Both the position numbers and the translations under genes were made by a program. A DNA stretch of 63,995 nt, counting the filler, from Bonamia ostreae (Eukaryota), in the NCBI GenBank assembly GCA_040357525.1. It is 12 parts of 12 records of this genome, joined end to end, with 100 filler letters (N's around TTAATTAATTAA, not from the genome) between each part and the next. Parts side by side here need not be neighbours in the genome. Positions count along the whole stretch, not along the records: positions 32,233 to 37,476 come from JBDODL010000213.1; 11 more parts are not named here. One strand, written 5' to 3'. Shown piece by piece: positions 5,806 through 60,565 of this stretch. Within the stretch, counting starts at the first letter, position 1. Each line of letters opens with the position of its first letter. Below the pieces are notes generated by a model. The model was not told the origin of the DNA and searched no databases. It saw only the letters and a list, made by a program, of their open reading frames with translations.

Positions 5806-6096
5806 CTGCATTATTGTTTAAACAATTTGAAATTTGCCATTTTCAGATTTTGTTTTTTGGAAAGTTGTTGTTTTCATGAAAATAATAAACTTAATATCAA
5901 TTTTTGATAATTTCCTTTTTAATGGATAAAAACCAAAAATTTTAAATTTTCTTTTTAATCAAACAACAATAAATTTATCAAAATTTTTGATCGATAAAGA
6001 AATTTTTATAAATTAAGGCAAAGCTGAAATCTTTTTAAGTGATATTTAATTCAATTTTCGAATAAATGGCAAAAGTAATCCAAATTTAATGTTTGT

Positions 6097-6540: not shown

Positions 6541-6882
6541 TTTCGATTATATCAGAAGTCTTAAAAACTATTCAAACTTCCCGACTCGCTATTCTCCCTT
6601 AAAAAACAATCCGGCATTTTGGCAATCGGTCATTGCACAAATATTAATTACCGCGGAATAAAACAATTTGAATTTTGTGGGATAAAATAATGAGAAAACT
6701 TTTTCTGAACTCAAAAATTTAACTTATCGACTTTTCGTGACCACAAAGAAAACTTATTTTCTCATTATCAAAATCAGTAAACATTTAACATCGAAAACGA
6801 AAAAATTGTCTTTAACTTTATCGACTAAAAAAGTCACCCCAAAAAAGTGTCTAAAACTATCGACTAAAAAAGTCACTACAAA

Positions 6883-7678
6883 ATGCCATTAATATACGCA
6901 AAACACAATACTCAAAATCCAAAAAAAGCTCTAGCCCAAATGATAAGCAGAACGCCATTATCCAACACCAACCTGAAATGCTGGCAGAAGGCGTTGATGA
7001 TAACAGGATCCGGAATTCTAAGCCTCGCCAATCCTTACCGCGACGACCTGGTCGCCGCGCTCGGCGAACTGACCGGCGAAAGGGCTCTCACCGCCATCCG
7101 AAACAAGATGCTCAAAAACCCCACCGGCAGAGCCATTTTAAAAGAAAAGCCGAAAATCACATATAAATCGATCGACTTTGAAATGCTCAGAAACTTACCC
7201 AAAAACTCTTTCGGTAAAGTCTATTCCGACTACATGACCGAACGTTTGTCCGCCTCAAATTTTAGACGGAATCTCGCCCGATTCGAGAAAAGCGGTGAAG
7301 TACATTAAAGACCCGGAACTGGCGTTCGTCGCGCAGAGACACAGAGAAGTGCACGACTTTCTGCACGTGCTCTTCGGAGCGCCCACGAACACTTTTGGCG
7401 AGTTGGCTTTGAAGGTTTTTGGTCTTACGGAAAAGTTGTTCGAGTACCTTTCTACGGGATTGCCGATGGCCGGAGCCGCGGCACTGTTTGGGCCGTTGCG
7501 GATGTCGTTGGCGGACAACGCAAACTTTTTCGGCGTGGCCGTTCCGTGGGCTTTTTACGCGGCGCAAAACGCAGTGGATCTGATGTGCGTCCGCGTCGAA
7601 GATCAGTTCGAAAAAGACTTTAAAGTGCTTTTGGGCGAATTGCGAATCGTCGACTTTCCAAAAAATTTAAAAAGTTGA
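6883..7678 (+). CDS. COQ4: Ubiquinone biosynthesis protein COQ4
   Basis: NPYRDDLVAALGELTG, HREVHDFLHVLFG, GELALK..FEY..TGLPM; introns 7244-7265 and 7415-7435. Confidence 0.95.
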
Positions 7679-7681
7679 AAT

Positions 7682-8218
7682 TTACTCGTTATCTTCCGTT
7701 TCGGCTTTTCTGCTTTCTTTATTAAGCTCTTTTGCAAATCCGTTCATCAAACATTCAAAGTTCTGCTTGTTGAATCCTCCGAGCTTTTCGTCGCTTTTGT
7801 GCGTCATTTTCAGCGCGGGTGTTCTGAAGAAGCTCATGTTGTTGCCCACAAAATTGGAAAGTCGTGGCTTGGCCGCGGCCACAATTTTTTTCGCGGCTTT
7901 GGCCGCTGTGCGTGGGTCGTTGTCCCAGACCAAGTCGATTTGGTGTCGTTTTCGGTCGTAGTTTAAGTTCTGTACTTGGAACCCGATCGATTTCAGGCTC
8001 GAATTGGACGTTGCCGTCTCGTTGTTCTGGGCAAACTTTTGTATCAGAAAAGACAGTCTTTTGTTTATCTTGGTCGCGCTAAACGAATTTGCGTTCATTC
8101 GCGACAGATCGTTTTCAAATTTTGCGGTAAATGGTCGCTTTGAGCAAGCTGATTTCAGGTTCGCTTTTGGCCGTTTGAGCAAGTTTTGAGCAAGCGCGGT
8201 TAAAACGGTTTTGGGCAT
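7682..8218 (-). CDS. Putative mitochondrial ribosome-binding factor A (RbfA-like)
   Basis: Basic presequence-like N-terminus; C-terminal AAKPRLSNFVGNNMSFFRTPALKM resembles the RbfA LR..L...R.P.L.F pattern. Confidence 0.5.
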   Translation of the reverse strand: MPKTVLTALAQNLLKRPKANLKSACSKRPFTAKFENDLSRMNANSFSATKINKRLSFLIQKFAQNNETATSNSSLKSIGFQVQNLNYDRKRHQIDLVWDNDPRTAAKAAKKIVAAAKPRLSNFVGNNMSFFRTPALKMTHKSDEKLGGFNKQNFECLMNGFAKELNKESRKAETEDNE

Positions 8219-8312
8219 TTTGTGTTTATATCGGTTATTTTAATGTTTAAAAAAATTGGGATGTGCGATGTAAAGTTTTAAGTGCAATTTTGCGAGTTAA
8301 TTTATTTTAAAA

Positions 8313-9137
8313 TCAAATTATTTTAATTCCGTATTTCGTTGTCAAGTGTTCCCAATACAGTTTGATATCGCTTTCTTCCAAAACGCGCAATCTCTTGTTT
8401 TCCGCTTCATCAAAATCAATGCTCTCCAAGATGTCGATTTCCTTTGTTCTGTAAAAATCGTAGTCGTTTTCCCCGAGAGACTCTATTAGTTCAGAAAAAT
8501 ATCTTTTTTCCTCGGAGCCGATATAAAATCGAAAAATCTGTTCGAACAAAATCCTCAACATCTTGAATGCTTTTCTGGCGTTCTTGTTGTGTAGATCCTC
8601 GTCGTATGTGTGTCTCCGTACATGGAGTATAAAAGACGTATCCATAAAACAAAACTGACCATGCTCATTGAAGCAAATGTTCGTTTCGTCTACTTTCCGG
8701 AAAACCATCCCGATTAAACAGCACTGTTCAACCGATATTATCGCGGAAACAATTAATTTGAGCAATTTCTCTCTACCAAAGTCGATGTTTCTCAAGTGAA
8801 AAGTTAAGGTTCCGCCTTTTTGAAATTTAAGCCAAAGAGAAGTCAAGTTGTTCTCATCGCTGAAGCCTAATATACAGGGATAGAAAGATAGCTCTTCGTT
8901 GAGTATTGATTGGATTCCTTCGATGTTTGTTTTTTCGTCAACTACATAAACAGTATAAAGGTCTTCGTCTTTTCCTCTGTACAAGTAATAGTCACTCTCA
9001 GAGCCATATTGAATGATCCCTAAACAAATGCTCATGTTTTGTGAAAAGTATGGGATGCTTAACGCCTCTGTAAATGGGATGATTTGATCACTTGTGTATA
9101 GCGATTGGATATTTTCTTGTGATTGGTCAGAGTTCAT
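8313..9137 (-). CDS. Divergent protein kinase-like protein, probable pseudokinase
   Basis: LKFQKGGTLTFHL (subdomain V-like); MVFRKVDETNICFNEHGQFCFMDTSF in place of HRDLKPEN...DFG. Confidence 0.6.
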   Translation of the reverse strand: MNSDQSQENIQSLYTSDQIIPFTEALSIPYFSQNMSICLGIIQYGSESDYYLYRGKDEDLYTVYVVDEKTNIEGIQSILNEELSFYPCILGFSDENNLTSLWLKFQKGGTLTFHLRNIDFGREKLLKLIVSAIISVEQCCLIGMVFRKVDETNICFNEHGQFCFMDTSFILHVRRHTYDEDLHNKNARKAFKMLRILFEQIFRFYIGSEEKRYFSELIESLGENDYDFYRTKEIDILESIDFDEAENKRLRVLEESDIKLYWEHLTTKYGIKII

Positions 9138-9245
9138 TGTTTTTAGGAAAGTAATTTTATAATTTTGTTTCGTTTTATTTGCTTTAATGCAATAATATTT
9201 CAAAAATAATAATATATCTATACAAAAATTATAATATTTCGGTGT

Positions 9246-10677
9246 TTATTTAATTATTGGCAAATTAATAAATTCAAAGTTGAATTGATAGTATTTTAAC
9301 AGATTTTTGTTTTCGTTAATAATTCTAAAGAAAAATATAAATTTGGAAATGATTTCTTTTGTTGACAAGTTCAAGTACTTGGGAGTCATATTTGACATAA
9401 AAATGACAATGAAACCACAAATTGATTGTCCAAGAAGAGAGCTGCCGTAAACTATCTTAGTCAAAATACCTTGAGGGCCGATGAGGCTGTTAAGCCATCT
9501 GTTAAATAAATGTCTTGTACATTCAAAGGCAATGCAAACTTTTAAACTCAAGGTAGTCATTGCGAAATTGTACTGATATTTGTTAATGTTTGCGGTTGTG
9601 GAATTGCTAACTCTAGGATTTGAACCCTGGCTACATGATTGGCGTAGCCAAGTGCTAACCAATAGACCGATATCTTGAATATTTGTTTTAAAAGTTTTGT
9701 ATTTACAGACAACTCGGTTGAAGAAGATTTTTTAGATAAACAAATAATATAAATATATAAATCTTTAATCAGAAGGAGAGGGGGATCAACCAGAAGCAAA
9801 AGAGCAAGCCGATGTCGTACAAAATCAGGTAGAAAACCAAATTAGGAATACCCTTGCACGCAATATCGAGGAAGTAAACGTACAGTTCGTAGGCAAAATC
9901 GCAAGATTCTGCATTTTTGATCTCCTTTACCAAGCCATTCTTTCCTCCCCAGTCTTTTGACAAATCATCGTACAACCGGATTAAATCTGAAACAAATGGC
10001 CCCATGAATGTTCGCACGACACCATTGGGATCCACATCTGGTTGGCGGCTGCCAGTCAAATAAAATAAACATTCTGCTTTGCCATATGCTCAACAAGCTA
10101 CGCATACGCGTGAATACGTCATAACCCCGTTCAATGTAGTCCAAAATATCTTTGCCGTGCAATCTCAAGTCACCATAAAAAGCCTTTCGATGTTTAAATA
10201 AAAACATTCATCAAGTTCGAATCTTTCTTAAAAATACAAGTGTGCGCAATTTCCATTATCACGTGGTAAGCTGTGTCGTTTTTTGCCTGACCGAAGGTGC
10301 TCCACTGTGCAAAGCAACTTTTACTGTCTGTAAAGTACTCGCCTCTAAAGTAATAAAATTTGATGGGCTCGAGGTCGTCAGTGATGTCTTGGCGTTGAGT
10401 TAAAAACCTCTTATAAAGTAGCAAGCCCACATTAATCGTAAATAGATCATGTATTTCGCGTAAAGCATCACAAAGCTCAAAATAAGATGCACCGTAGAGA
10501 TGAATTTGAAGCTAATTTTCCAGCTGAACTTTATTCGGAGGATGAAGTAGATTGACATGAGTAGAGGAATTCCGTATTGGATGATGGCCATGTTTAGAAC
10601 GAACACCATCGCCAGGTTTCTTGAATACATGAGGATGTCATCAAAATAAGTGAATACGCTACCGTATTCGGTTATTT
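9246..10677 (-). CDS. Hypothetical multi-pass membrane protein, multi-exon, 5'-truncated
   Basis: Series of minus-strand ORFs with hydrophobic segments separated by short gtttt...ag gaps. Confidence 0.5.
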
Positions 10678-11255
10678 NNNNNNNNNNNNNNNNNNNNNNN
10701 NNNNNNNNNNNNNNNNNNNNNTTAATTAATTAANNNNNNNNNNNNNNNNNNNNNNNNNNNNNNNNNNNNNNNNNNNNAATCAAAATTTTTAAAAAAGTTT
10801 TAGACAAATTCCAAATCTAGACGAAATATTTAAGTCGGATAAATCTGAAAATAGTGAAACAAGTTTTAACAAATTGGATAACGTCTTTATTTTTTCACAA
10901 AATTAAAGCAAAGATTAAATTAAAAAACAAAAAGTTCCAAAAGCTAAAATTTAAAAAAGATAACAGTAAAAGCAGAAAAATCCTTTCTATCACATAACGT
11001 CTTTATTTGTCCAATAATGAAAGAAGAAATGGAATTGAACGACCATGCAGTCAAATTGCCATGTGGTCATGTTGTCGCAAATTCTTCCATTCGAAAAGTG
11101 CATAAAAGGAATTGTCCGAGTTGTCTGAAAAGTTTCCGATATGACAAAATTGAAAAAATTGATTTGTAATTTAATCGAATTTTTTCGACTTTTGGAATTT
11201 TAGCAAATTTATTATCTTCGATTTTTGTAAAATAAATATTGAAAAAATGCAAATT

Positions 11256-11564
11256 TTATTTATTTCCGTCTGGATCGCGCAGCACAACAATAACAGAATC
11301 GCCTCTTAAAAATAATTTGCTGATGTACCTGTCTCTGTTAACCATTTCACTCTTTTTATCTTTGGACCTTACGTTCTCTGTCCAAAATTCAGTGACGTTT
11401 TCTAGCACCATGTTCATATGTCTATCGAAAGATTTAACGTAAGCGAGAAGTTTTTTGTTGTTTCTGCAATTTACAAGGACTTTTGTGTTTTTGCGGACAG
11501 ATTCAGCTAACACAGCCATCGGTCCGTTTTTGAGTATTTCTGTTTTTTCTGTCGTTGTAGTCAT
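11256..11564 (-). CDS. SNRPD2: Small nuclear ribonucleoprotein Sm D2
   Basis: GPMAVL...[29 protein letters not shown]...[19 protein letters not shown]. Confidence 0.97.
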
Positions 11565-12204
11565 TTTTAAGCTTTAGCTTCTAAAAAAATTATATTGAGT
11601 TGTCTAAAATATTGCGTTTTTTCAAATTTGTCTAATTTTAATTTAGATAGAACGTCTTTGGAAAATAACTAAACAGCAAAGACGTTCTTTGAGACTTTGA
11701 ATAAATTTAACAAAAAATGAGACTTAAAATGAATAAAAAATAGAAAAATATTTATTCAGACTTTACAAAAGGGACATCCCATATTTAGTAAAATATTATC
11801 GGAACAGATTTTGCAAGAAAAAGAAACTAATTAAAGACGAAATTGAAACCAATGAACACTTTTTAGAAAATGTTTTGGCAATAAAAAAGTAGTTTTATAG
11901 GAACTGCCAATGGATGACAAAACAAAACAATAGCGTCAGAGTCTATTAAAAAGATTAGTTTGACGTCAGAAGGGATGCCATCTTTAAAAACAAATTTCTA
12001 AAAACAAATTTTTAAAATACAAAATGTGTATATTAATCAACAAAACTAAATTCCAGATTTGATTTTATAAAATTGTAAACGAAATTTCTCAAATGGTAAC
12101 CAAATTTAAATCCGATATACACCACAATCAATTGTTTTGACAATTTGAGAAATTTGTTTCTACAGATCAGAAAAATTTATTTTTATCAAATCTTTAAATT
12201 TCAA

Positions 12205-12933
12205 ATGGTATTTTTAGGAATCAACGAGCAAACATATTTAAGTCGTTATATTGAAGATACCTACAACACAATACCTTGGAAATACTTCGCGTATATAGAA
12301 GACGATTATCCTATTCCAAGTGTCTTGGATATGATTATAGAATACGATGATATGATGGAATCACGTGCTGACTGTTTATGGGAAGAAATAAACGACACTG
12401 AATTTCGCAAAGCCTTGCATAAAGAAATTTTGATCGAAGAGACAATAAGTTGGGTAGAAAAGGGCAATATTCCTCTAAATGCGTTATTTATGGAGCAACG
12501 GAGTATTTTAAAGAAAACGAGAAAAGTCAAATCATTTATTCAAAACTATTATATGCTATCTGCGAACGATTTGAAACCCGACAGTGAAGGCTTCATCGAA
12601 CTGGGACATTTGCAAGGTTTTTTCTTATCGGCTTACAGCTACAAACACTTTTGGTACATCATTTCAACGTCAGAACATTTCGAAATTAAAAACCAGAAAG
12701 TAAGGTCAAGAAATAAATGGAATATTCTTTGTTTTGAAATGCAAAATTGTCAAGCCGAGAAAGCAAAAATAATCGATGACGAAACTGATAGTGACAGTGA
12801 CAAAGAAGAGAGTATAGTTCAAAGACGCTTTAGAAAAAGAAAGAATGACGGGGAACTCAAACAAGGAAAATTTGATAACATTTTTAATTTGGAATTTAGG
12901 AGCATAGCTGAGATTTTGGGAGGCTCTGAATAA
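12205..12933 (+). CDS. Hypothetical protein
   Basis: Uninterrupted ORF of ~240 aa with an acidic patch and a basic NLS-like RRFRKRK. Confidence 0.6.
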   Translation: MVFLGINEQTYLSRYIEDTYNTIPWKYFAYIEDDYPIPSVLDMIIEYDDMMESRADCLWEEINDTEFRKALHKEILIEETISWVEKGNIPLNALFMEQRSILKKTRKVKSFIQNYYMLSANDLKPDSEGFIELGHLQGFFLSAYSYKHFWYIISTSEHFEIKNQKVRSRNKWNILCFEMQNCQAEKAKIIDDETDSDSDKEESIVQRRFRKRKNDGELKQGKFDNIFNLEFRSIAEILGGSE

Positions 12934-13007
12934 ATTGTATTAGTATTTTTTGGCTCGAAGATGTGTTAATTTGAAGTATATTTGCGTGTATACAAATTAA
13001 AAATTGA

Positions 13008-16000
13008 TCATTTTGTTTGTTTATATTCGTCTCTGTACTTGTAACAAGCGAATGCAGACACAGCAATCGCTGAGATTAACGAACAACCAAACACGGGCAG
13101 TACAAAGTACAGAGAAGAGATTTTTACAGTGTCCAAATGCGCATTGATAAAATTGTCATCACATATTTTAGTTTTTTCATTGTATGATTTGTAAATTTGT
13201 CTTCTATCTGCAGAGTTATAAAGTATTTTCGATTTTTTGCATAAAATGTTCACTTTGGTGTTGTTTGAGCAAACAACTAAAATTTCCTTTCTATTTCTCA
13301 AAATAGTCGCGTTTTTCAAATTTGATGACATGTTAGGTTCCCTTAAAAGCAATTTCGAAACATTGCAGCCATTATCAATACCTTTTAAATAAAATAATTT
13401 AAAACTTTCACAGATGGAATTATGATGAACCAAATAAGTGTTTGAACACTTAATTTTTAGATTTGGATATAAGAATTCTTCTTTCGTAAGCCATTCTCTA
13501 TTACTGTTTCTGCATTTAACGTCATATATGCCTTCTTTTATGTAACTGCCAGTTTTATTGTTTTTCAGAATAAATTTTTCGTTTAAGATGTTACAGCCTT
13601 GAAAAATTTTAGTATATAAAACTTCTACAAGCAGTTAAAACTTTCTCCTTCCAATCAATATTTATTATTTTATTGATAAACATTTCAGTACATTGGAAAT
13701 TCAATTTTTTTATCTGACCATTGTTACCGATGTTGCATTCATAATGGTAATCTAATATACTCTCTTTACTAAAATTAGTACATTTTGTGAGATCTAGTTT
13801 CTCGCAATCAATTTTCTTTGCTCTTTTTAGATCAACATAATTTATTCCCATATAACATTTCAATTCAACAGAATCGAAAAATTTGTTGCCAATTTTCACA
13901 AACTTTTTATTCTGGCAATAAACAGTTGCGTTTAAGCCAGATTCTATCAGATCGACATTGAACCCGTTTTCTTTATTCAACGGACACAAATTTTTGCAAA
14001 AATCAGCGATTTTGTTTTTGCTGTCCAGAATCGTCCATATCTTTGTATACAATGTTCCCATTATGCAATTAAGGTTTTGTTTTATTTTTCTTTTTTCGCA
14101 AATGATCTCAAGGCTGTGTCCATTTCGAATTACATAAGACTCACTGTTGTTTTGTTTTTGTATTAAACGATGCGTCAATATCTGTTCTGCATCACAGCTG
14201 TTTATTTTATCTTTAAAATTTTAATATGAACCTTCTAGTTCAAGGAGGATTAAATCGTTTGGATTTTTGCATTCTATTTTAATGTACTCTAACAGTCTAT
14301 TTTTATACTTGAATAAGAGTGAGCTGTTGTAACTTGGTATTCTCTCGAAGCCTAAGTATTTTATCCATGATTTTTCTCTCGAAGAATTGTTGGGAAACAA
14401 ATACTTTACATCACAACCTTTAATTTTTCTAGAAAACCTTTGCAAACCGATTCGATTTCGCTTTCCAATCCGGGAATTTTAAAAAAGTCCTTGTCACACG
14501 AGAAATATATTCTATTAGGGGGGCAAAGATAAATAAAATTTTTGTTTGATATCTTGAAAATATAATGACATTCTTTTGTATCAATAATAGCACAATCAGA
14601 GTTATCGACACTCCAAATTTTTGTATCGCTTACAATCATTCCGTCATCGTCACAAGCCAGAGTATATGTACTTTTTAGTTTAGTTGTATTGGATGCAAAT
14701 TTTTTCCAAACGCAAAATCCTTTATTGATGCTTTCCAACTTTAATTTATCAATAATCTGTATAGACACTGGACAACCAGAAGTGCACAATTGTTGCAGTA
14801 CGCGAAATTCTTTAACATTTTCGCCAAAAGATGTGAATAAGTTTCCATTTTCACATCTTATCCTTATAGTGTTGTTATTGTTTGAACAGACAAAATCTTT
14901 TTCTTTTTTGTCAAGAATAATTTCCAAAAAGTTCTTGATTTCGCATCCCTTTTTTATGTCTAAAATAGTTTTTAAAAACCTGAGCATGTTTTGTTGATCT
15001 TGTTTTTCCAATCGTTGTCAAGATACTTTATCTTGTCATTGCACTTGAAATGAATTTCGTTCGTGTTGTCTTTGTCGTTTAAAGTATAATAATATCCAAA
15101 TTTCTTTCCCAGATCATTGAATTTTGAGGAATTAAGGTTTTGACATTTTATCTCAGCAAACTTCATCGAGTTAAAAATATATTTGCTGTTGTGGCATCCA
15201 ATTTCAACAGAATCGAAAAATTTGTTGCCAATTTTCACAAACTTTTTATTCAGGCAATAAACAGTTGCGTTTAAGCCAGATTCTATCAGATCGACATTGA
15301 ACCCGTTTTCTTTATTCAACGGACACAAATTTTTGCAAAAATCAGCGATTTTGTTTTTGCTGTCCAGAATCGTCCATATCTTTGTATACAATGTTCCCAT
15401 TATGCAATTAAGGTTTTGTTTTATTTTTCTTTTTTCGCAAATGATCTCAAGGCTGTGTCCATTTCGAATTACATAAGACTCACTATTGTTTTGTTTTTGG
15501 AATAACGACAATTGACAACCAGAAGTGCAAAATTGTTGCAGTACGCGAAATCCCTTAACACTTTGGCCAAAAGATGTGAATAAGTTTCCATTTGGACATC
15601 TTATCCTTATAGTGTTGTTATTGTTTGAACAGACAAAATCTTTTTCTTTTTTGTCAAGAATAATTTCCAAAAAGTTCTTGATTTCGCATCCCTTTTTTAT
15701 GTCTAAAATAGTTTTTAAAAACCTGAGCATGTTTTGTTGATCTTGTTTTTCCAATCGTTGTCAAGATACTTTATCTTGTCATTGCACTTGAAATGAATTT
15801 CGTTCGTGTTGTCTTTGTCGTTTAAAGTATAATAATATCCAAATTTCTTTCCCAGATCATTGAATTTTGAGGAATTAAGGTTTTGACATTTTATCTCAGC
15901 AAACTTCATCGAGTTAAAAATATATTTGCTGTTGTGGCATCCAATTTCAACAGAATCGAAAAATTTGTTGCCAATTTTCACAAACTTTTTATTCAGGCAA

Positions 16001-16050
16001 TAAACAGTTGCGTTTAAGCCAGATTCTATCAGATCGACATTGAACCCGTT
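13008..16050 (-). CDS. Cys-rich repeat type-I membrane protein, multi-exon, 5'-truncated
   Basis: Repeated Cys modules, short introns, C-terminal TM LYFVLPVFGCSLISAIAVSAFAC followed by YKYR. Confidence 0.75.
13859..16050. repeat. Near-identical internal duplications: 743-bp tandem period plus a ~300-bp block at offset 1339
   Basis: caacagaatcgaaaaatttgttgcc at 13866, 15205 and 15948; ORF starts 15011 and 15754 encode the same peptide. Confidence 0.92.
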
Positions 16051-16150
16051 NNNNNNNNNNNNNNNNNNNNNNNNNNNNNNNNNNNNNNNNNNNNTTAATT
16101 AATTAANNNNNNNNNNNNNNNNNNNNNNNNNNNNNNNNNNNNNNNNNNNN

Positions 16151-17199
16151 TAGAATTTGTTCTTTTATAAAAAAATGTTTTTATAAAAATATCTGAAAAA
16201 GAAAGACTTGCAAAGCAAACAATTCATATTCTGAAAAGATATTGGGATCCTCATTCATATCTCGAATTTCAATCGAGCCGACTTCTTTGGAATTCACCGA
16301 AACGATCTCCGATTTTGGGATTTTATGAATCCCTTTTTGGCAATTGTTCAAAAGCTCCACTTCTTTTGAAAGAAGATACGGATTGACTTCAAATCCGCTT
16401 ATTAGAGCGGTGAGCAGATCGGTGAGCTCTTCTGCAGCGCCGTTCTTTATCCTCAAATCGGCGTACTCCAATGGCGATATAACGCCGAATCGAACGCCGT
16501 AAAATGTCGAAATTCGCGCTAAAATTGGGCGAACGTCTTTTGCGGCGTGATGAGACGACTCGAGAGCAATTTCAAAGATTTGTCTTTTTAGATGTTTTTC
16601 GGTCACTGCTTTCAAGCAATTTCCGAGGCTCAACATGAAAAATTGAGGGTTGCTCGATTCCGTGGCCAATCCAATGACACCGCTGAAATCGCCTTTTCCG
16701 ACCATTCTGTCCGCGTAGTCGAGAATGATGGAGGAAATGTGCGGGTTCAACGCCGACTCGCGATGATTGTGGACATTGTTGCTGTGCCGCAAAAAGGTTC
16801 CGATGGCGTATTCTGTCGTGTGTTTTTAAGCTCGGGAAATCAAAACCGATTAACGTTTGCGAATAAAGAGTGTTGTCTGATGGATCGAAGTATTTCCCCG
16901 CGTTGGTCGCGTATTCGAACGAGAGCGCCGTGTCTTTGAGGTGATAATGGATTCGGGAGAAAATGGAAAAGACCAAGTCTTTGTCGGGGAAATTTTGATT
17001 TGTGTCCGTGAACTTTTTTCTTTTTGATTCGAAATGCAAAACAATCGGGGCAGATAGCTCGCAATTTCAGGCCAAAGGCGGTCGATCAAATCGTGGATCG
17101 CCTTCAAAGCGTAAAGTTGCGCCTGTGAAGCCGAGTCGTCGAGAATCGAAATAAGTCCTTTTGTTGATAAACAAAACCTGAAACTGAACTAAGAGGCAT
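16151..17199 (-). CDS. PSMD1: 26S proteasome regulatory subunit RPN2, N-terminal part, 3'-truncated
   Basis: SVSGLISILDD...YALKAIHDLIDRLWPEIASYLP, SRIHYHL...FEYATNAGKYFD, GVIGLATES; introns of 20 and 23 nt. Confidence 0.88.
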
Positions 17200-17624
17200 T
17201 TGATGTGTTTATGTGAAGTGTTTAATTGTTTTAAAGCTGTTTAAGCTTTAGAATATTAAATCGATTTTTAACTAAATGTCGATATTTCTAATTCTGTTTA
17301 ATAAAGGTTAATCCCTTCATTCGTAATTTGTAAAGTTTGACCTTTAAACGGGTTAAATCAAATCGAAAAACTAGAGCGTCGCTCATTAAACCGCTTCATT
17401 AAAGCACTAAATTCAATGAGGGATTTGATTATTAAATAATGTTAATTCTCCCAATTTGATTTACGTCTAAAAAATTTTATTTGCGTAGAATTTACTGCGA
17501 AAACAGGCGAAAACAAGTAAAATATTGCCTCCGTTGTGTTAAAGAACCATTCGCTTGGCCCATTAACATATTCCAAATTATATTAAACCAAAAGCTATTT
17601 AACTCCAGTCGAAAGTAACTTGTA

Positions 17625-20600
17625 ATGAACAGTAAAATTAAAACTCCCATGATTGAATTGGCCACTCGAGAACCATCTCCGAAAAGATGCAGCGACGCCG
17701 GTTCGTCCAAAGCAAATCCAAAGAACCAATCCGGCGATTGGTTTTGGTGTGACCACGGAAATTTTTTGTGGACACCGGCCCGCGTGATCAGTCGGGACCA
17801 AGAAAATGTTATTGTTGAAAGCAAGGAAGACGGAAAACTTTGTTTCAGTCAAAAAGATTTTGCCAATTTTGGAAAATGCGAGTCGAGCACAATCGTTTTC
17901 TTTGGCAAATTGATTCACTTAAAGAACGCGACTTTTGAGAATCTGGCTGATATGTCCGAATTCAACGACGCGGCGATTCTCTATCAGATGAGAAAACGAT
18001 TTTTTGCAAACTCGGTCTATGTTTTTAATTAACACTGAAAAGACCAGTATCGGCAAAATGCTGGTGACAGTCAATCCCTACAAAAACCTGCCGCTGATGG
18101 GAGACGAAATGGTCGAAATGTACAGAAAACTAAAATTCGCCGAAACGGGCAAACCACACATCTACAACATCGCCTCGAGAGCTCTTAAAGGACTGGCGCT
18201 CAACGGGAAGAACCAGAGCATCATAATAAGGTTTTCGCTCGTTCTAATTCAAGTGGCGATTCCGGCTCCGGGAAGACCGAATCCGCAAAGCACTCTCTTC
18301 TGTACTTTTCAAAAGTATCCAAAAGCAACAGAGATGTGGAAAGTAAAGTTCTCAGCAGTGTTCCGATACTGGAAGCGTTTGGAAACGCAAAAGTTTTTCG
18401 TAAGACCTAAAAGACGAACAAAAATAGCAATTCGAGTCGGTTCGGGAAATGGATGGAGATTTTCTTCGAGATCGATCGGTCGGTCAGCATCAAAGGCGCG
18501 AAGGTCACAGAATATCTGCTGGAAAAGGCGAGAGTTGTGTGGCAGGCTCCAGGCGAAAAGAACTTCCACATTTTCTATTTGTTGCCGTCTTTTCTCACGG
18601 AGTGCGAACGCGAAGATTTGGGTTTGACGAAAGACGTCGAGTTCAAGTACTTAAAAGTTTTGAACTAAAGTTTAGGGGCGAATTGGGGAAAGCGATCCGT
18701 CGCTTCGGGAAAGGGTATTGGCGTCGATGGCTGAAATTGGCATTGAGCGCTCAGAGCGAATGTGCGTCTTTCAGATAATCAGCGCGATTTTGCATCTCGG
18801 AAATGTCGATTTCGTGGGCGACAGCGACGACTGTTGTTCTGTAAAGGATTCGAGCAGAAAATCTCTCGGCCACTTTTGCCGATTGCTCCGATTAGATGAG
18901 AGTGAAGTGATGAAAATTTTGAACACGACTTTTAGTTTTTACTGAAAACAATAGTTCCGATCAAGAAGAAGAAGATTGAGAAATTGCTTTGTAAAGAAAA
19001 GGCGGTGGAAAACAGGTTTTCGCAGATAATGTTTTGTTAGGGATTCCATAGCTAAGACGATCTATGGACGATTGTTCGAATGGATTGTCGCCAAAATTAA
19101 CAAGAGTTTGGATTTCCATTGGAATGGTGAGCTGTCTGTTGGAATCTTGGATATTTTTGGTTTTAGAACAATTGAAATTTTTATCCAATTTTGAAAATTT
19201 GAAATAAAAAATTATAAAAGGATTTGAAAGTTTTAAAACGAACCGATTTGAGCAATTTTGCATTAATTACGCCAATGAAAAGCTTCAAAAACATTTCACT
19301 GAGTTTTTGTTTCAGCAAGAAGAGCGAGAATATAAAAAAGAAGGTATCAAATTTGAAACAGAGCAGTTCAAAGATTCGACCGAAGTGCTTTCGCTCATTG
19401 AAGGGGACCCGATTGGTCTCTTAACGCTTTTGTTTTTATTTTGCATTTGAAGGGATATGGAAACGAAGCTGCCAAACGGGAACGACCAAAATTTCTTAAA
19501 CAATTTGAACGCCAAATTTAAAAACAGGAAATCCAGTTCTTGTTATTTGAACGTTTAAATTTACAATTTGTAGAAAAGAGATAGCGAATTCGAGATAAAT
19601 CATTTTGCCGAGACAGTGGAATATTCCATCGCAGGTTTTGTGGAGAGCAACAAATACTCTTTTTGTCAGGCGTTCGAAAGATGTCTCGCGAAGAGCAGAA
19701 ACGTCGTCGCGAAAAATCTTTTTTCGAACTGTAGTACGCCTCCGAACAGTTTTGCGATGTACAAAAGAAAAGGCTCTCTCGCGACCGATTTCAGAAACCA
19801 GTTGAACAAATTGCTTTTGAAGATTCGAAAAACGGAGCCCCATTTTGTGCGTTGTCTCAAACCGAACATTGGGAATCATCCGAACACTTTCGACTCTGCT
19901 CTGGTGATGAATCAAATGAAGAACGCGGGGCTGAGAGTGGCGATCAAAGTTCGTTCGACGGGTTTTGTAAATATCAGACAGGTTACGCGTACAGAAAGCC
20001 GTTTGAAGATTTTCTAGAACGGTATCGAATGTGTGTTTCTGTGGAAAATCGAAAGCTCTTTAAGCGATCTGGTCGAAAAAGAAGCGAAGCTTCATTGTTG
20101 GTCTCAATATTAAACGAAGAAGTTTGTTTGCGCAAAAAAATCCAAGTTTTATTTTAGATTAATTGTCTCTATCGATTATAAATTTTGAATGCGACAAAAA
20201 TGGCATAAATCGATTGTCTTATAAAAAATTTAACGATAAGATTGGGAAAGAAAAAATATTTTATGATGCGGAGCATATGCGAATTTTGGAACAAAGATTG
20301 GCATTCGAAGAAGAAAGTTCTGCAAACGTTATTTTGGTTCAATTTCGAATATTGTTGGCCAAAATGGTTTTTTCGAGAAGAAGTTTGGCGCTGAACTATC
20401 TGTCGACTCAAACGAACAAACGCTCTTTTTCCGATATAAAGAAGGCGATAAACGCGGCGGTCGCAACTGGGATCAGTGTGTACCACCCGCTGATCGAGAC
20501 TGCAAAACTTGTTTTGTTGGAAATGGTCTGCGCTGAGAAGGTTGAGATGATCGAAAAAACGAAAGATCACATGAAAGTCAAAAATGTGTACGATTCTTTG

Positions 20601-32132: not shown

Positions 32133-32303
32133 NNNNNNNNNNNNNNNNNNNNNNNNNNNNNNNNNNNNNNNNNNNNTTAATTAATTAANNNNNNNNNNNN
32201 NNNNNNNNNNNNNNNNNNNNNNNNNNNNNNNNTAAACTAAAAATCTGCAAAAAAATTGCAAAAAATAATCAAAAATCTGAGAACTAGCAATCAATAAAAA
32301 TAG

Positions 32304-32926
32304 CCGCGCAACATTCCCAGGATTTCTCGTCCTGGTACTCGTCCGTGCCGGGTCTTAAAGTATTCTCTGTCTTCGATGCCTAAGATGCACGCGGAATGGT
32401 CAAAAGCGCCATCCGAGACGACAACCCCGTTCTTCTGCTCGAGCACGAGTTGGTTTACGGCGACTCCTTCCCCATCTCAGAAAAAGCTCTTTCAAAAGAT
32501 TTCCTCGTTCCTTTCGGAAAAGCTCGCATTATGCGAGAAGGAGAAAATGTCACAATAACAGCAAGTTCCATCTCTGTAAAGAAGGCGCTGGCTGCGGCAG
32601 CAATGTTGGAGAAAGAAGGTATCTCCACGGAAGTGATAAACTTGCGTTGTCTGCGCCCTCTCGACACGGAGACGATCCTCTCTTCCGTGAAAAAAACGAG
32701 AAGACTTGTGTCTGTCGAGGAGGGTTGGCCGCAAAATGGAGTGGGCGCAGAGATGTGCGCGCTGTTTATGGAAAGGAACCGGTTCTATGAATTGGACGCG
32801 CCAGTAGAAAGGGTGACGGGCGCAGATGTTCCGATGCCTTACGCAAAAGAGTTGGAGGAAAAATGCACTCCATCTCCCGAAGACATTGTGAAGGCCTGCA
32901 AACGAACGTTGCACAAGGACACGTAA
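32304..32926 (+). CDS. PDHB: Pyruvate dehydrogenase E1 beta, 3' exon
   Basis: AQHSQDFSSWYSSVPGLKV, SAIRDDNPVLLLEHE, EVINLRCLRPLD, LDAPVERVTGADVPMPYA. Confidence 0.96.
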
Positions 32927-33190
32927 ATAAGCTAAAAACTTTAAATTTTAAATAAAAAATTTATTTCAAACATTTTTGTTGTTGTTACATTTATTGTGAC
33001 AAAAAATTTATGAGATTTCATGTGCATTTTACGACATTGGAAATTGACAAAAATTCTAAAATCTCACTGCAATTTGAAATTATCGTTGGCGAAAAAATTT
33101 TCGATCTAGTTTAGAATATGTTAATGGCAGAGAATAAAATTTCTGAAAACAACAGATTTGGTGTTTTGGACAATTTGATCGCAAAACTTC

Positions 33191-33646
33191 AAAAAGCCTT
33201 GAGGGATTCGAACCCCCGCGGAGACCAGTAGTCAACTGCGACTCCACCAACCGACCATATCTGGACGGAAGGATGTTAACCACTGCATCAAAGGCTATTC
33301 GTCGATCGCCGTCCAAGCAAGTCACAGCAACACCGCCCAACGCTCCGTGAACTGCATGGACAGCTTCCGCAAATTCGCGTGTTGCGAGCGATCGCCAATG
33401 GCGGGCATCACGTCAGGGCACTTTTGGCGACAAGACGTGGGCTCGAGAGAGCACATCCCATCCCGCCAGAAACTTCGTGCTCGCCGCGGCCGTTCGAACG
33501 GTCTGACTAACGCGGAGGTGTTGTTTCAAGATTTCGACAATTTTAAAGTGATTTTGTAATTGTCGTGGCCGGGGATCGAACCCCGCGGTTACGTTCCAAG
33601 TCATTAGCAACACAAGGTTGTAACAGCCAGACCATCGAACGGCGAT
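33191..33646 (-). ncRNA. Putative Pol III structured ncRNA locus, family unidentified
   Basis: GC-rich island; two GGTTCGANNCC B-boxes on the - strand; no T4 run until T5 at 33195-33191; several long helices with G-U pairs. Confidence 0.7.
33195..33296 (-). ncRNA. tRNA-like element with non-canonical middle arms
   Basis: Acceptor-like AGCCTT/AAGGCT, D-arm GATG-CAGTGGTTAA-CATC, T-arm GGGGG-TTCGAAT-CCCTC, oligo-T terminator. Confidence 0.65.
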
Positions 33647-33766
33647 TCAAATAGAAAATTTTTTGTTTATTATGTTTTTGCAGCCATTATTTGCTTTTAC
33701 ATGTTTTAATTCTCGTTGCTGCGATAATGTAAATAAACTTTTCAATAATGTAAAAATTTGTACAAT

Positions 33767-36700
33767 TTAAGAATATTCAAAGGCTTCGTCGATGATGAGA
33801 ATATCTGGATCCGTAATTTGGTAATTTGATTCTCCGTCCATGAAACTTATATTCAAATCTCTTTTATCTGGTTTCTTAGAATTAGTTTTCTCAAAATTTG
33901 CGTATAAAAGGTTTGCCAAAGCTGACACCAAAACCAAAAAAGTCATTGAATATGGCAAAATTGTTTTTAGTTTTCCTTTTTATTATAAAATTCGAAAGAA
34001 TGAGCAAATAAATTATAAAATCGCAAAACCTGGAGATACTTTGCTCAAACAAAATGATGTTTTACTATTCCAAACGCCCTCATTGCAAACAGGATGGTCT
34101 CCATAAAATTTGTAGTTGTTCCTACATACTATCTTACAAGTGCTTTTGTTCCTTGTGTTGTAACAATATTTTATTTTCTCGCTGTCAGCGTTTTTGATAA
34201 AGGGCAACGTTTCAATGCAGTCGAGATTATCGACACAAGCAAAATTTTGGTCGTCTTTTATCTTCTCAAATACATTTTCATGGCCATTCAAGTTATAAAC
34301 CCAATCCTCCTTGCATGTAACAATGGTGGATTTGACAGGTGATTTAAAATTGAAAGTTGTATGCTGATTTGCACAGAAGACTTGACAACTGTCACCCTCT
34401 GAAAAATATTCTTTCCCGCAATTTTCATCAATGGAAGGATGCAAAATGGCCCTTAAATCGTCAAGTACACATTTTGCTTTTTATTTAAAAATTGTTGCTA
34501 TTTCATAGAATATTGTTATAATATTGATTTAAAACATTGTTTATAGAAACCGTCACAATGTTGTTTATAGAAAGATTCAGAAAAGATTTTTTCGCTGTCG
34601 GCGAGAACAAATTGGTTCTTTTCGTCACATTTAACGACAAACGGGTTTGATTTCGGATTGTGTAAGCATTGAATCGACATTCTTTCTCCTGGTCCAAGTC
34701 CAGTGCTCAAAGAATCAATTTGAAGGATGTTTTTATCGAGCAAATTAATGGAGCAGTAACTTACGTCTCTGTTCGTTTCTTTGCAATCCAGAACATCAAC
34801 CACATCCTTCAAGCTTTCGAAAACTTGGTTGTTGTTTTTGTATTTCCAGACAAAAGTGTTTGCGTCCAAATCACAGACGACATTTACAGAAACAGATGTA
34901 GTGGCAAAGTTGAGTACTTTATTCGGATCTTTACAGGAAATGGTACATAATTCTTTGTAGTAGAATGTGTTTTTTTGATCACTTGGAGTTTCCGCAAACG
35001 ATATCGATGAAGTCGATATCGTTAATAAATCGCTTTTCAGGCAAAAAGCTAAATTTTAAAACGTTTGGTTAAATTTTAGATTATTTTTTGAAACTACCTT
35101 TACAGCGTTCGTAAAAGCCAAAATAGCTTGTTGGCGAATTGTTATCAGTGAAATAAAATTTTGATTCATCTCCGCAGCGAATTTGAAAAATTACATTGTT
35201 GATGCACAAAATAGTTCTAATTGTATCAAAATATTCTCCTTTTGCATTTTCTGGAATTAGAATAACGGGCGAAGTTATTTGTTTGTAAGAACAATATATC
35301 TCTTCCGTTGTTTTGTCTTTTGTTTTCAGATGTAACAATGATATAATTGGTGATCGAAGAGTTAAAAGGAACGGATGTTTGAAAACCTCTACAGCGAATG
35401 GTGTTCTTAATGCCATTAAAATCAACCGCAGAATCTTTTTTCGCGGTCCATTTATACAAACTATTGCAATAAACTTCGGTTTCAGTGGTTGGAGTACTAA
35501 AATCGAGAAATTGGTTTTCGTTTTCACAATAAATGCAGCAAAAATCTCCAACGCCATAAGATGCTTTCACACATGTGCTAGCAATTCCGTTGCCCAAATG
35601 TCGAGTTATGTCTGTAAGACTACAATACTTTTCCGGTAAAGCAGGCACTAAAAATTTAAGTATTTTTAACTATTGCACTCTTTTCTGAAAGAGGTTTCGT
35701 TCAAAAGAGTTTTCGCATTTTTAAGATAAAAATTAGAATCGACCCCACAAATAATCTCGAAAAAGTATCTCGATGGACATATTAATGTTGTTACCACATT
35801 AACTGATGTGCCCATTATGCCATAAGGAGTACCTGCAAACGAATGGATGGTACTGAATAGACAGTATGCTTCATTTATTTCTATTTATTGTACAATTTAT
35901 AGTTTTGTCGAGATGATTTAATTGTTACATACAGTTAGTTAAAAACGGTTACAAACTATTCTATCTGAACTTAGATCCACAAAAGGATCATTTTCCAATG
36001 CCCAGTTTAAATTCGAGTTACAATAAACTTTTACGAAAGCGACATGTTTCGTTATATTTAGTACTGTATATGGTTTGCTACAAAGAATAAGACAAGTCCC
36101 TCCAGGCGAAGTTTGTTGGGCAGGGCATTGAAGCAAAACTTCCTCTCCCAAATTTTTCAACAGACCTTGTTGAGAGCAATTTGGAACGCATCTTTTTCTG
36201 TAGTCGTTTTCGTTAAGTGCCGTTCCTGTGTCCACAAAATGAAAATTGGAATCGGCAAAACATTGCACTTTAAAAGTTATTTTCGAGATACAGATCAATG
36301 TTTTTATTGTATTCAAAGTTTCGCCTTTCACGTCGAATGGGACATGTAATATTAAAGGATTCAAATCGCTGTATGAGCAATATGGTTCTTTTGGGTTCAA
36401 CGCTTTTTATTTAGTTTCGTTGGATGCATCTCCAATATTAGTTAGGAAAGTTGGTAACACAAAAAATTTTAATTTTCAAAGTAGTACAAAAACATCTACA
36501 GCGCACCGGATTGGAGATATCGTAAAAATCGACTGTCGGATCATTAGCTATAATCCATTTGAACTGCTCACTGCATTTGACAGTGCTCATTGTTACAGGA
36601 GCTAATAAATTTAACACTTGTTTTTCAGTGTTGCAATAAATAGCGCATTGATCACCAAAGTAATTCTTTTCTTTCGGGCAAACAATCACTATTTCGCTTC

Positions 36701-37301
36701 CCGTGTTTTCGTGCAAAACTTTGTTCGAACAATAGATATCTTTGCAAAAATCTGTGACCTCTTTCACATTTGTAACAATAAGATTCGCCGAGTTTATTAG
36801 ATTCTTGTCTCTGCAATGTAGGTTCATCTTATCCCCGCCATTGCATTCCACGACTACATTTTGATCGGTACCAACACCTTTGACACCGTATTTAAAAGTT
36901 ATCGCACTACCGTCAAACTCTTTTAAGCTGCAATAATTCTGGTCATTCTTTAAAGCGACGCATGAAAATTGAGGGCTGATCTGACCATACGAATCGAACA
37001 AATTGTTTTGTTGCTTATTATCGCCGATCTTAGACATGTAGACCCATTTTCCCTTGTTGCAAAAGACTTCGAGTTCAGTTTTTTCTTGCCCAGGCACTCC
37101 GAACAGGCTGTCAGCGAACTTGCAAACGAAAATACAACTATCGCTCTGTTTTATTTGCTCGCTGACACATTTTTCGCTGTCAGCCATTTTTACGGTTGCC
37201 GTAATGCGGTTTTGCAGCAAACTGCGTGCGCAAGTTAAAATTTTGGTTGATCGAGTAAACGCACTTAGCGTTGCCATTAACGCAACGAATGAAAAAATCA
37301 T
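33767..37301 (-). CDS. Cys-rich sushi/CCP-like repeat surface protein, multi-exon
   Basis: Signal MIFSFVALMATLSAF; modules C...G..C.I.C...V.C...W; a sushi-like CKIVCRNNYKFYGDHPVCNEGVW; hydrophobic segment near the C-terminus. Confidence 0.8.
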
Positions 37302-37576
37302 TGTTATTTCTATGTTAAATTTTATTGTGCACACAATTCCGTTATTTAATTGATGCTGTGATTTGCTTGGAATTTTAGGTTTTAGACGATTTTGTAATTT
37401 TTTTGAATGTAATTTTTTGCGACAATAAGCGATTTTAGACGATTTTGTTTGTGAATAATTTTTTGCGACAATAAGCNNNNNNNNNNNNNNNNNNNNNNNN
37501 NNNNNNNNNNNNNNNNNNNNTTAATTAATTAANNNNNNNNNNNNNNNNNNNNNNNNNNNNNNNNNNNNNNNNNNNN

Positions 37577-51798: not shown

Positions 51799-52089
51799 GA
51801 NNNNNNNNNNAGAAATTTATAATTGTCAAAAATATGTTGGACATTTTTGCAGTTATTTTGATTTAACTAAAATTTTGTAATTTTGGTTTCTCATTTATCG
51901 TTATTGCGTATAACAATTTTTTTGTTAAAGAATTTTTGCTTTTTTTGCGGAACTGATCGATAAACTTAAACAGATAAAGTCTTAAACTCGAAAAAAAACC
52001 ATCCTTAAAACAAATTTAGCCAAATCAAGCTTACTGTGATTATATTCAAAAACCTAAAACATCCAAATCAGACTTGATTAGTCGACAAA

Positions 52090-59031: not shown

Positions 59032-60069
59032 TTAGTCGCTTTCCTGTTCGAGCTCTCCACCCGAATCGCGGTTGAAGAGACGAGAGTCGTACATGACGAT
59101 GTTGTTGCTCTTGAGCGACTGGCCCAGCGCAATTTTCTCGCTGATGTCTCTCCGCTTTTCTCGCGCCTGGTGCCCTCTCTTCTTCTTGCGCTCTTCTTGC
59201 CGCAACTCGCGCCGCCGATCGTGCATTCTGTCTTTCCGCAGCTTCTCGCGCAATATGCGTTCTTTGAGCCTTTTCGCGCTTTCCTCCGAACTTTTCTTGT
59301 ACCGCGGCCGCTCTTCGCCGCGAGCGCTCGCGCTCTTTCTGTTCGAGGCTTTGGCGACGGCTTCGTTGTACTTCTCCTCCATCCGCTCTCGGACGTTTGA
59401 GACGAACTCCGCGTCGTGCGACTGCTGGATCGCGCCCATCGCGCGTTTCTCGAGTTCAGCTTCAGCCTTTTGTCGCTTCTGCTGCGCCAGGCGCTTTACC
59501 TGCTCTCCCCGCAAGCGGACGTTCTCGCGCGCGACGTTTTCGGCTTCGTAGAGCGCTGTGGACAGCGCTGAGAAGCGGCTGTTGATGGTGAACGACTCGT
59601 ATCCGCGGCCGTCGGCCGCGACTCTTTTGTCGAGCGGGATCGTGTAGCTCTTCACGTTCTTCCAGTTGGAGACGCACGGCGGGATCTTCCACTCGGCGGC
59701 TTCTTTACGCGAGAGCTTGCGAGGAGGGGATTGCAGCACCGGCGGAGGCGGGGAGGAGGCGCGCATCGGCTGTTTTCGGAAACGGTGTTTCGGGGGGTCG
59801 AGGGGGTCGAGGGGCATTTCCTGCAGTCGGATGACGCGCGTTTTGAGGGCGCTGTTGTGCTGTTGCGCCGGTTCGAACTTGACGTAGACCGGCTCGTTTT
59901 CTTTGGCCTTTCGGATGTCCCTTTGTTTCTTGGCTTCTATTTTGCCGCTGATGATCTTTTCGAGCGCCGTCCTGGTCTGCTCCGTGTTTTTGAGTCCTTC
60001 TTCTCTGGTCGGTTTGCGACTGATTTGCTTGTCGAAGTAGTTTTCGTTTTCGGGTCGCGTTGTGATCAT
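59032..60069 (-). CDS. SNW1: Spliceosomal protein SKIP/Prp45
   Basis: DPLDPPKHR, SPPPPVLQSPPRKL, WKIPPCVSNWKNVKSYTIPLDKRVAADGRG, RDISEKIALG, YDSRLFN. Confidence 0.97.
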   Translation of the reverse strand: MITTRPENENYFDKQISRKPTREEGLKNTEQTRTALEKIISGKIEAKKQRDIRKAKENEPVYVKFEPAQQHNSALKTRVIRLQEMPLDPLDPPKHRFRKQPMRASSPPPPVLQSPPRKLSRKEAAEWKIPPCVSNWKNVKSYTIPLDKRVAADGRGYESFTINSRFSALSTALYEAENVARENVRLRGEQVKRLAQQKRQKAEAELEKRAMGAIQQSHDAEFVSNVRERMEEKYNEAVAKASNRKSASARGEERPRYKKSSEESAKRLKERILREKLRKDRMHDRRRELRQEERKKKRGHQAREKRRDISEKIALGQSLKSNNIVMYDSRLFNRDSGGELEQESD

Positions 60070-60565
60070 TTTACTTTATCCTTTGTCTTTAATATCTTTT
60101 AAGGAACGATTAGTTTCTTTGTGTATAATGTCTTTTTTATTTGGATCGGTGGAAACGGCATCGGGATTCTATCTCTTATAACGTTGAATAATGTCTTAAA
60201 GCTGACAAAAAGAAACTCGACGACAGCAGAAATCAAAACGAAAACTAATAAAAATGCTCTATGAACAAAATAATAAAAAATTTGATAATCGCGAGACTTA
60301 TGCCTCCAAATACAAACAATGCAGAGGCACCGAATGCCTGTAACAATCAACCGACACTTCTTCTTTCTAAAAGAAATTACGCGATTGCAAATACTCAATT
60401 TAAAAAATTCTAAACAATTGATCCAAAATTATATTAGGAAACATAAAATAGACGTATAGACTTTACAAGAAACTAGGTCTAAAAACATAAACATCAAAGG
60501 ACATAAACAACTTGTATTTATATTTTAGAAAAATGTTTTGCAAAACGATAGAGAAAATCTTTTCA

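Follow-up and report, generated by a model that had tools for sequence, protein, structure and literature searches.

What does the GC-rich island at positions 33191 to 33650 of this Bonamia ostreae sequence encode, if it encodes anything? The sequence analyzed, termed the window here, is a 63,995-nt (64-kb) stretch of assembly GCA_040357525.1, and the island falls in the part that comes from record JBDODL010000213.1. It had been interpreted previously, from the letters of the DNA only, as the template of one RNA polymerase III (Pol III) transcript on the minus strand, made of a structured RNA and a tRNA-like tail (the sequence-only reading). That interpretation was partly supported by the analysis reported here. 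The island is a transcribed, well-folded noncoding locus with tRNA-derived ends, and it is neither an artefact nor a member of a described RNA family. We favor, at a probability of roughly 0.45, a single-locus minus-strand gene for an RNA of ~350 nt, probably transcribed by Pol III from a tRNA-derived promoter head, the 3′ end of which is set at a second tRNA-like element as in MALAT1-mascRNA.

The island has no convincing open reading frame (ORF). Several stop codons interrupt each of the six frames over 33150-33720, and the longest ORFs of the island (70, 66, and 86 amino acids) belong to no Pfam family, the sole match having an E value of 0.097, below the cut-off. The earlier description of a GC-rich island without a convincing ORF, with PDHB on one side and what was called a surface-protein gene (a Cys-rich gene) on the other, was borne out. 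The window is AT-rich, intron-bearing eukaryotic sequence with a mean GC content of 0.325, and the GC content reaches 0.56 to 0.62 over 33200-33600. Values of 0.52 to 0.67 are also found in PDHB and in other exons of the window, and the island is not unique in its GC richness.

Transcription was assessed from the sequencing runs that contain the stretch (8 rows from 4 studies), which were compared over 32400-34600. None of the runs is recorded as RNA, and the RNA label of one of them, X5, is a guess. X5 is RNA-like in that one of its contigs skips 82 nt with GT..AG ends (34464-34547), in that the intergenic sequence 32992-33287 has no cover, and in that the PDHB exon is covered very deeply. 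Contigs of this kind give neither strand, exact ends, nor expression level; their ends are approximate, and holes in their cover prove nothing. The island is represented in X5 by a separate contig, which is listed here with the two tRNA-like modules, E1 and E2.

33562 to 33645, minus strand: E1, a decayed tRNA-like head of 84 nt, with a B box and a 6-nt T-like loop and without a cloverleaf fold
33193 to 33297, minus strand: E2, a tRNA-like element in which the acceptor, D, and T arms are kept and two long hairpins replace the anticodon and variable arms
33292 to 33673, strand not given: X5 contig of 382 nt, separate, depth 190, with no differences from the window

The depth of 190 compares with 28.6 to 91.4 in the adjoining Cys-rich gene. 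No contig joins 33292-33673 to either neighboring gene, and 33674-33799 has no cover. At the other end, the contig stops 5 to 6 nt inside E2 (33292 versus the E2 start at 33297, with contig ends approximate) and leaves out the remainder of E2; a stable RNA thus appears to end at the 5′ edge of a downstream tRNA-like element. The earlier claim that the locus is transcribed held in this one RNA-like run. A structured RNA of ~350 nt with a tRNA-like tail on the minus strand was likewise supported, but not as one stable piece: the X5 contig stops at the 5′ edge of the tail, and the tail is therefore either cut off or a separate small RNA lost by the library. E1 is included in the contig; contigs cannot separate a precursor from a mature form.

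The body of the RNA is predicted to fold into three domains.

33489 to 33645, minus strand: domain 1, closed by a 20-pair helix (33643-33624 with 33509-33489); z score of −5.31, with none of 200 shuffles as good
33376 to 33488, minus strand: domain 2, branched, with CGCG/CGCG, GCGAGC/GCUCGC, and UGGCGGG/CCCGCCA helices and two hairpins
33297 to 33375, minus strand: domain 3, a long irregular hairpin, with the presumed 3′ end of the RNA in its closing helix

Over 33296-33645, the minus strand reached a minimum free energy (MFE) of −137.5 kcal/mol (z, −3.60), and none of 100 shuffles folded as well. Its centroid, at −133.8, is nearly the same structure as the MFE fold. The corresponding values for the plus strand were −127.7 (z, −2.86), with a centroid of −117.9. 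The PDHB exon, used as a coding control, had a z score of −2.74 and a centroid of just −34.6, and a second coding control had a z score of −0.01. The ensemble diversity of the minus strand was 43.5, the lowest value among 11 GC-rich segments of 350 nt (54.6 to 140.7 for the others) and below that of all 40 shuffles (minimum, 51.4). The island stands out more clearly by how well its ensemble is defined than by its z score.

The 20-pair helix of domain 1 contains one bulge, and all three of its non-Watson-Crick pairs are G-U on the minus strand; because of the G-U pairs and the bulge, a DNA-level scan for inverted repeats missed it. One of its strands is the 5′ half of E1, which pairs with 33509-33489, and the loop of domain 1 encloses the T-like hairpin and a hairpin at 33565-33535. 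Domain 3 had a z score of −3.95, and none of 200 shuffles folded as well. The centroid of domain 2 is its MFE fold. The 5′ and 3′ ends of the RNA are not paired with each other. The sole base difference inside the RNA among the samples, at 33441 in run X4, falls in domain 2, where it converts a G-C pair into G-U if the minus strand is transcribed; on the plus strand it would produce an A-C mismatch.

Two of the helices proposed previously, CGACAAUU/AAUUGUCG (33565-33558 with 33542-33535) and UGGCGGG/CCCGCCA (33468-33462 with 33405-33399), are in the MFE fold. For the other two, complementarity was recovered but the pairing was not: the fold joins CAACAC of CAACACC/GGUGUUG to a different GUGUUG at 33613-33608, and GUCGCCAA/UUGGCGAU, complementary by reading, is absent from it. 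The proposal that G-U pairs favor the minus strand reduces to a slight preference (14 pairs on the minus strand versus 11 on the plus strand). Both copies of GUGUUG can pair with the single CAACAC (33523-33518), and alternative folds are therefore possible. A 17-nt direct repeat, GUGUUGCU(A)AUGACUUG and GUGUUGCU-GUGACUUG (33613-33597 and 33334-33318, minus strand), links E1 with domain 3 and is not significant (33 of 300 shuffles). On the minus strand of the window, the word GGCGATCG is confined to the island, which has two copies of it (33396-33389 and 33310-33303); the copies are self-complementary and, by reading, could pair together across domain 3.

Judged by its sequence, E2 is a tRNA look-alike that would not decode and that stays below detection thresholds. 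It scored 24.5 bits against the Rfam tRNA model RF00005 (cut-off, 29), with an E value of 0.002 in a 121-nt search and an alignment to model positions 1 to 71. Acceptor, D, and T arms are present, as is a TPsiC-type loop; a 35-nt stretch and an 18-nt insert occupy the place of the anticodon arm in this alignment. When folded alone, E2 adopts a five-way junction that resembles a cloverleaf and includes two long hairpins (z, −2.49; matched by 4 of 200 shuffles). The loops of these hairpins measure 4 to 6 nt and 5 to 7 nt, and E2 has no five-pair anticodon stem with a 7-nt loop. In two DNA runs, one extra base lies in the loop of the first long hairpin; that loop is therefore not fixed. The stack of acceptor and T arms and the elbow of D and T loops are recognized by tRNA-processing enzymes, and both are kept in E2. 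ARAGORN at its default settings found no tRNA in the window, and at relaxed settings it also called E2. A "permuted tmRNA" that it offered on the plus strand at a lowered threshold was rejected; the tag runs into the AT-rich flank.

E1 is the more eroded module. Its tRNA features are just a 5-pair T-like stem with a 6-nt loop, and ARAGORN called it with lowered thresholds only. Global alignment of E1 with E2 revealed collinear words at the 5′ ends and around the B box. The central 263 nt between E1 and E2 have no tRNA likeness by local alignment or Rfam search, and further local alignments that bore on paralogy or on tRNA likeness of the center gave scores reached by 33 and 76 of 300 shuffles.

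Promoter and terminator signals of the Pol III type were located as follows.

33572 to 33582, minus strand: B box 1, GGTTCGATCCC, within the hairpin at 33585-33570
33204 to 33214, minus strand: B box 2, GGTTCGAATCC, within the T-arm hairpin at 33217-33201
33624 to 33634, minus strand: A-box-like TGGTCTGGCTG, a weak match on the 5′ strand of the long domain 1 helix
33191 to 33195, minus strand: T5 run, the sole run of four or more T's on the minus strand of 33191-33650

The B-box consensus GGTTCGANNCC matched twice in the whole 64-kb window, where 0.20 matches were expected; both matches lie in the island on the minus strand, 368 nt apart, and 2 of 100 shuffles reached two. Both hairpins are present, CGGGG-UUCGAU-CCCCG at 33585-33570 and GGGGG-UUCGAAU-CCCUC at 33217-33201, in agreement with the B boxes and the B-box hairpin that had been described. 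The "A box" assigned to TGGTCTGGCTG is weak: it misses the consensus, and the invariant A is absent. In E2, the D-arm part, which would supply an A box, aligns well to the Rfam tRNA model. T5 matches the oligo-T terminator of type 2 Pol III genes, with no earlier T run in 33191-33650, and the plus strand contains three internal T4 runs. GTTCGA and CCGCGG recur in the island, which holds 4 of the 27 copies and 3 of the 9 copies in the window, respectively (minus strand). A scan for bacterial-type promoters and terminators was uninformative, apart from picking up the T arm of E2 plus T5.

In the gene that we propose, E1 (33645-33562) would provide Pol III with an internal promoter of the tRNA type (type 2), with B box 1 as its firm part and the A box as its weak one. 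In the transcript, E1 would be refolded, its 5′ half closing domain 1 through the 20-pair helix. The polymerase would pass two further stable domains without meeting a T4 run, enter E2, and stop at T5. RNase P, the simplest candidate, would then cleave at the 5′ edge of E2 and release it, as happens with mascRNA at MALAT1, and the 3′ end of the remaining stable RNA would lie within the helix that closes domain 3. Such an RNA might serve as the scaffold of a lineage-specific RNA-protein particle, although this role is a guess. A more specific version, which is doubtful taken as a whole, makes the product an abundant, lineage-specific Pol III RNA of ~350 nt that founds a new family; its head would be both promoter and helix strand, RNase P would form its 3′ end at the nondecoding E2, and the two-armed piece of ~105 nt would be a second product.

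Several results weigh against a Pol III gene ended at E2. Both the strand and the polymerase are ones that we infer, and the RNA-like evidence is a single run with a guessed label. The X5 contig starts at 33673, ~28 nt upstream of E1 and of the 5′ end proposed by the sequence-only reading. It thus includes a TTTT at 33658-33655 on the minus strand, a poor fit to a Pol III start just before E1, and its other end, lying 5 to 6 nt inside E2, is a few bases off the expected RNase P site. E1 had no match to RF00005 at an E value of ≤10, has no special fold when taken alone (z, −0.23), and did not align significantly with E2 in a local alignment (15 of 300 shuffles reach the score). No match to the A-box consensus TRGYNNANNNGG lies in the island, and the 9 matches in the window are close to the 9.6 expected. 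Absence of T4 before T5 on the minus strand is correct as an observation, but it is not significant as an argument, the chance probability being 0.16 to 0.26. As to the fold, the z score alone is not specific because the PDHB coding control reaches −2.74, and domain 2 by itself is not significant (z, −1.15; 27 of 200 shuffles fold as well). No homologues were found for an analysis of covariation or conservation, and a metagenome scan with the E1 pattern returned 0 loci.

It is unlikely that the island is instead a functionless relic of tRNA-derived DNA that is still transcribed via its surviving B boxes. Such a relic could be a pair of decayed tRNA pseudogenes or an ancient, composite insertion of a tRNA-derived short interspersed element (SINE). 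The locus would be ordinary if it were a mere transcribed relic of this sort. Such an origin would suit two modules that are both sub-threshold tRNA look-alikes and an island in which the GTTCGA and CCGCGG motifs recur. It fits poorly with a fold that is far better defined than those of shuffles and of 10 other GC-rich segments, with the 263 nt between the modules that lack tRNA likeness, and with an RNA depth above that of the neighboring gene.

Copy number also bears on a relic. Searches with blastn and nhmmer found 0 further copies in the 64-kb window, and in DNA run X1, a 3,319-nt contig crosses the element and its flank at a depth of 10.3, versus 12.2 beside it, which is single-copy depth. 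There is no sign of a high-copy repeat within the window or in the depth of the DNA contig, and the check for dispersed copies that had been proposed thus gave no sign of them. In DNA run X4 (depth, 2 to 5), the contig matching 33190-33699 continues for 110 nt below 33190 with sequence unlike the window, the break coming directly after T5; either the AT-rich flank differs structurally there or the contig crosses another junction. The mismatch resembles another insertion site or a variable flank, as a relic would have, but the same contig matches the window for 54 nt past the other end of the element, which marks it as the same locus.

Two separate genes are a more improbable arrangement. A TATA-like promoter lying upstream, near 33673-33700, would drive an RNA of ~380 nt, transcribed either by Pol II or by Pol III through an external promoter, and this RNA would form its end near 33292 without help from E2. 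E2 would be an independent tRNA-like Pol III gene of ~105 nt, equipped with A and B boxes and a T5 terminator of its own. The start of the X5 contig at 33673 does lie upstream of E1, where the sequence is AT-rich and contains TATA-like words, and E2 agrees well with the tRNA model in both the D arm (A box) and the T arm (B box), with T5 directly after. RNAs of the size of E2 are often lost from standard libraries, and such a loss would account for a contig without E2. At 33292, however, there is only TTT, with no poly(A) signal or T run. Two genes would also leave B box 1 as an unexplained coincidence, and it would be a further coincidence that the contig ends where E2 begins.

The island could instead encode an essential RNA of a known family (RNase P or MRP, 7SK, SRP, or telomerase RNA) that has diverged so far, in a fast-evolving lineage, that the Rfam models no longer recognize it, a possibility that we consider very improbable. 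Rfam at the gathering score gave 0 matches in the window. With the E value relaxed to ≤10 on 33050-33800 and 33290-33660, the matches were to snoRNAs and mascRNA at chance level, apart from that of E2 to tRNA; over 33290-33660, no family was found but for one chance-level match. The mascRNA model scored 12.1 to 15.2 bits against a cut-off of 42.5. No covariance-model match was found in Rfam for RNase P/MRP, SRP, 7SK, U3, telomerase, vault, or Y RNA. The expectation that the island belongs to no standard Rfam family was confirmed, the nearest approach being that of the tail to tRNA, at 24.5 bits versus 29.

Reading by eye against consensus forms was consistent with these searches. None of the candidates for RNase P CR-I/CR-V, a GNAR-capped SRP helix 8, box C/D, or H/ACA was convincing, nor were those for an Sm site, a telomerase template (1.5 repeats), or the 7SK GAUC stem. 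The sequence-only reading had reported no clear SRP helix 8, RNase P/MRP CR-I/CR-V, or telomerase-template motif, and we read the island the same way. The island contains short, mutually pairable GGCGAUCG words that may resemble the 7SK GAUC stem; by eye, this stem is unconvincing. Besides the missing motifs, 5′ and 3′ ends that do not pair with each other speak against a known RNA in disguise. In its favor, the lineage is divergent, with 8 of 10 large ORFs of the window having no Pfam family, and the RNA resembles yeast RPR1 (PMC2566860) in size, in its stable, GC-rich fold, and in having a tRNA-like leader.

Least probable of all is a plus-strand transcript, a stray piece of a neighboring mRNA's untranslated region, or a short coding exon: the contigs are strandless, the plus strand folds with a z score of −2.86 and has T6 and T5 runs near the 33673 end, and ORFs of 70 and 66 amino acids exist. 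Against such an origin, it is the minus strand that carries both B boxes and the matches to tRNA; the plus strand is interrupted by three T4 runs, folds at a higher energy, and has a less well defined ensemble. No cover joins the contig to its neighbors (32992-33287 and 33674-33799 are empty, though a hole proves nothing), and no protein family was found.

The island is placed between two converging genes and is therefore not the promoter of either.

32396 to 32926, plus strand: C-terminal exon of PDHB, with its stop codon on the island side (Pfam Transketolase_C, 1e-40)
ORF ending at 34013, minus strand: Cys-rich gene, with its 3′ end on the island side

The closest relative of PDHB is 74% identical and lies on a short contig the size of a transcript; named PDHB relatives are ~61% identical and spread over animals, fungi, and stramenopiles, and the best JGI relatives (61 to 64% identical) lie on contigs of ~1 kb. 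In X5, the PDHB exon (32400-32940) has a depth of 3,300 to 19,600, versus 28 to 190 for its neighbors, which points to either highly uneven amplification or very strong expression; positions 32608, 32627, and 32629 each show two alleles. In X1, the AT-rich spacer separating PDHB from the island (32950-33170) is polymorphic, with 4 base differences and 1 insertion in 32953-33039 and two alternative contigs over 33054-33169, and 33140-34600 is the same as the window except for one inserted base.

On the other side of the island, Cys-rich ORFs of 143 to 360 amino acids with a repeated C...C...W...C spacing stand in a row on the minus strand (34013-37520), one of them beginning with a hydrophobic, signal-like stretch. 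Pfam gave no family for the two that were tested. The row, which had been called a surface-protein gene, looks like a paralogue array. Of 10 large ORFs of the window (277 to 833 amino acids), two had Pfam matches: the ORF at 59032-60075 matched SKIP/SNW, and the one at 60566-61675 weakly matched the chitin-binding family CBM_14. The proteome looks very divergent. Pairs of N blocks (44 N's each, with 12 letters between) recur every ~5.3 kb, for example at 5291-5390, 10678-10777, and 32133-32232, and further blocks of 100 N's and 10 N's lie at 3652-3751 and 51801-51810. These blocks look like masking rather than biology; one pair covers part of the region upstream of the PDHB exon.

If a Pol III gene ended at E2 is the correct description, one small gene would have recruited tRNA-like elements on two occasions, for an internal promoter and for a signal that forms the 3′ end. 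A MALAT1-type device for end formation would then operate within a small Pol III gene of an organism far from vertebrates, and the reach of noncoding RNA ends made by RNase P would extend beyond vertebrate MALAT1 and NEAT1 into Pol III genes. A poorly sampled eukaryotic lineage would also have yielded an orphan structured RNA with a well-defined three-domain fold.

Comparison with known systems places the locus near several of them. BC1 RNA and the master genes of tRNA-derived SINEs have a tRNA-derived 5′ head with a B box, which forms a hairpin and not a cloverleaf, and a single expressed locus. E1 resembles BC1 in its tRNA-derived head with a B box and without a cloverleaf, and here too there is a single expressed locus. 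Unlike BC1, the RNA has no A-rich tail, is longer and GC rich, and carries a 3′ tRNA-like element, and no dispersed family was seen in the data examined.

Leader promoters are known from yeast. According to PMC2566860, the first 84 nt of RPR1 hold a tRNA-like promoter, and in snR52, RPR1, and Zod1 the A and B elements lie upstream of the mature RNA. Like these genes, the locus has a tRNA-like segment with a B box, the 84 nt of E1, ahead of a longer structured RNA. The yeast leader is removed, whereas the X5 contig includes E1, which is part of the strongest helix. Here, moreover, the A box is a weak match, and no RNase P or snoRNA model fits the body. Another precedent is the dicistronic Pol III gene headed by a tRNA, as in Yarrowia (tRNA-5S and tRNA-RUF70), Schizosaccharomyces pombe (tRNA-Ser/tRNA-Met), plants (tRNA-snoRNA), and MHV68 (tRNA-like-miRNA) (PMC2566860, PMC4337559). 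The organization of one Pol III unit driven by a leading tRNA or tRNA-like gene, with processing at tRNA edges, would be shared. Dicistronic genes have a true tRNA in front and short spacers, whereas here neither tRNA-like part decodes, 263 nt of structured body separate the two, and the second stands at the 3′ end.

RNase P generates the MALAT1 3′ end at the tRNA-like mascRNA (PMC8457004, PMC4824109). MALAT1/MEN-beta with mascRNA/menRNA and the present locus have in common a tRNA-like element without a working anticodon arm directly behind a stable RNA, and a stable RNA that ends at the 5′ edge of that element. MALAT1 and MEN-beta are Pol II RNAs of several kilobases whose ends are protected by a triple helix and an A-rich tract, whereas the RNA here is ~350 nt long and probably made by Pol III. 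No triple-helix element was found: the minus-strand body has no run of at least four U's and lacks motifs rich in U or A, and an ordinary helix takes up the final 5 nt ahead of E2. The locus differs from all of the systems compared in that the head is kept, the body belongs to no known family, there is no triple helix, and both tRNA-like parts are nondecoding. Each of the steps proposed for this gene has a precedent in the leader-promoter, dicistronic, and MALAT1 cases.

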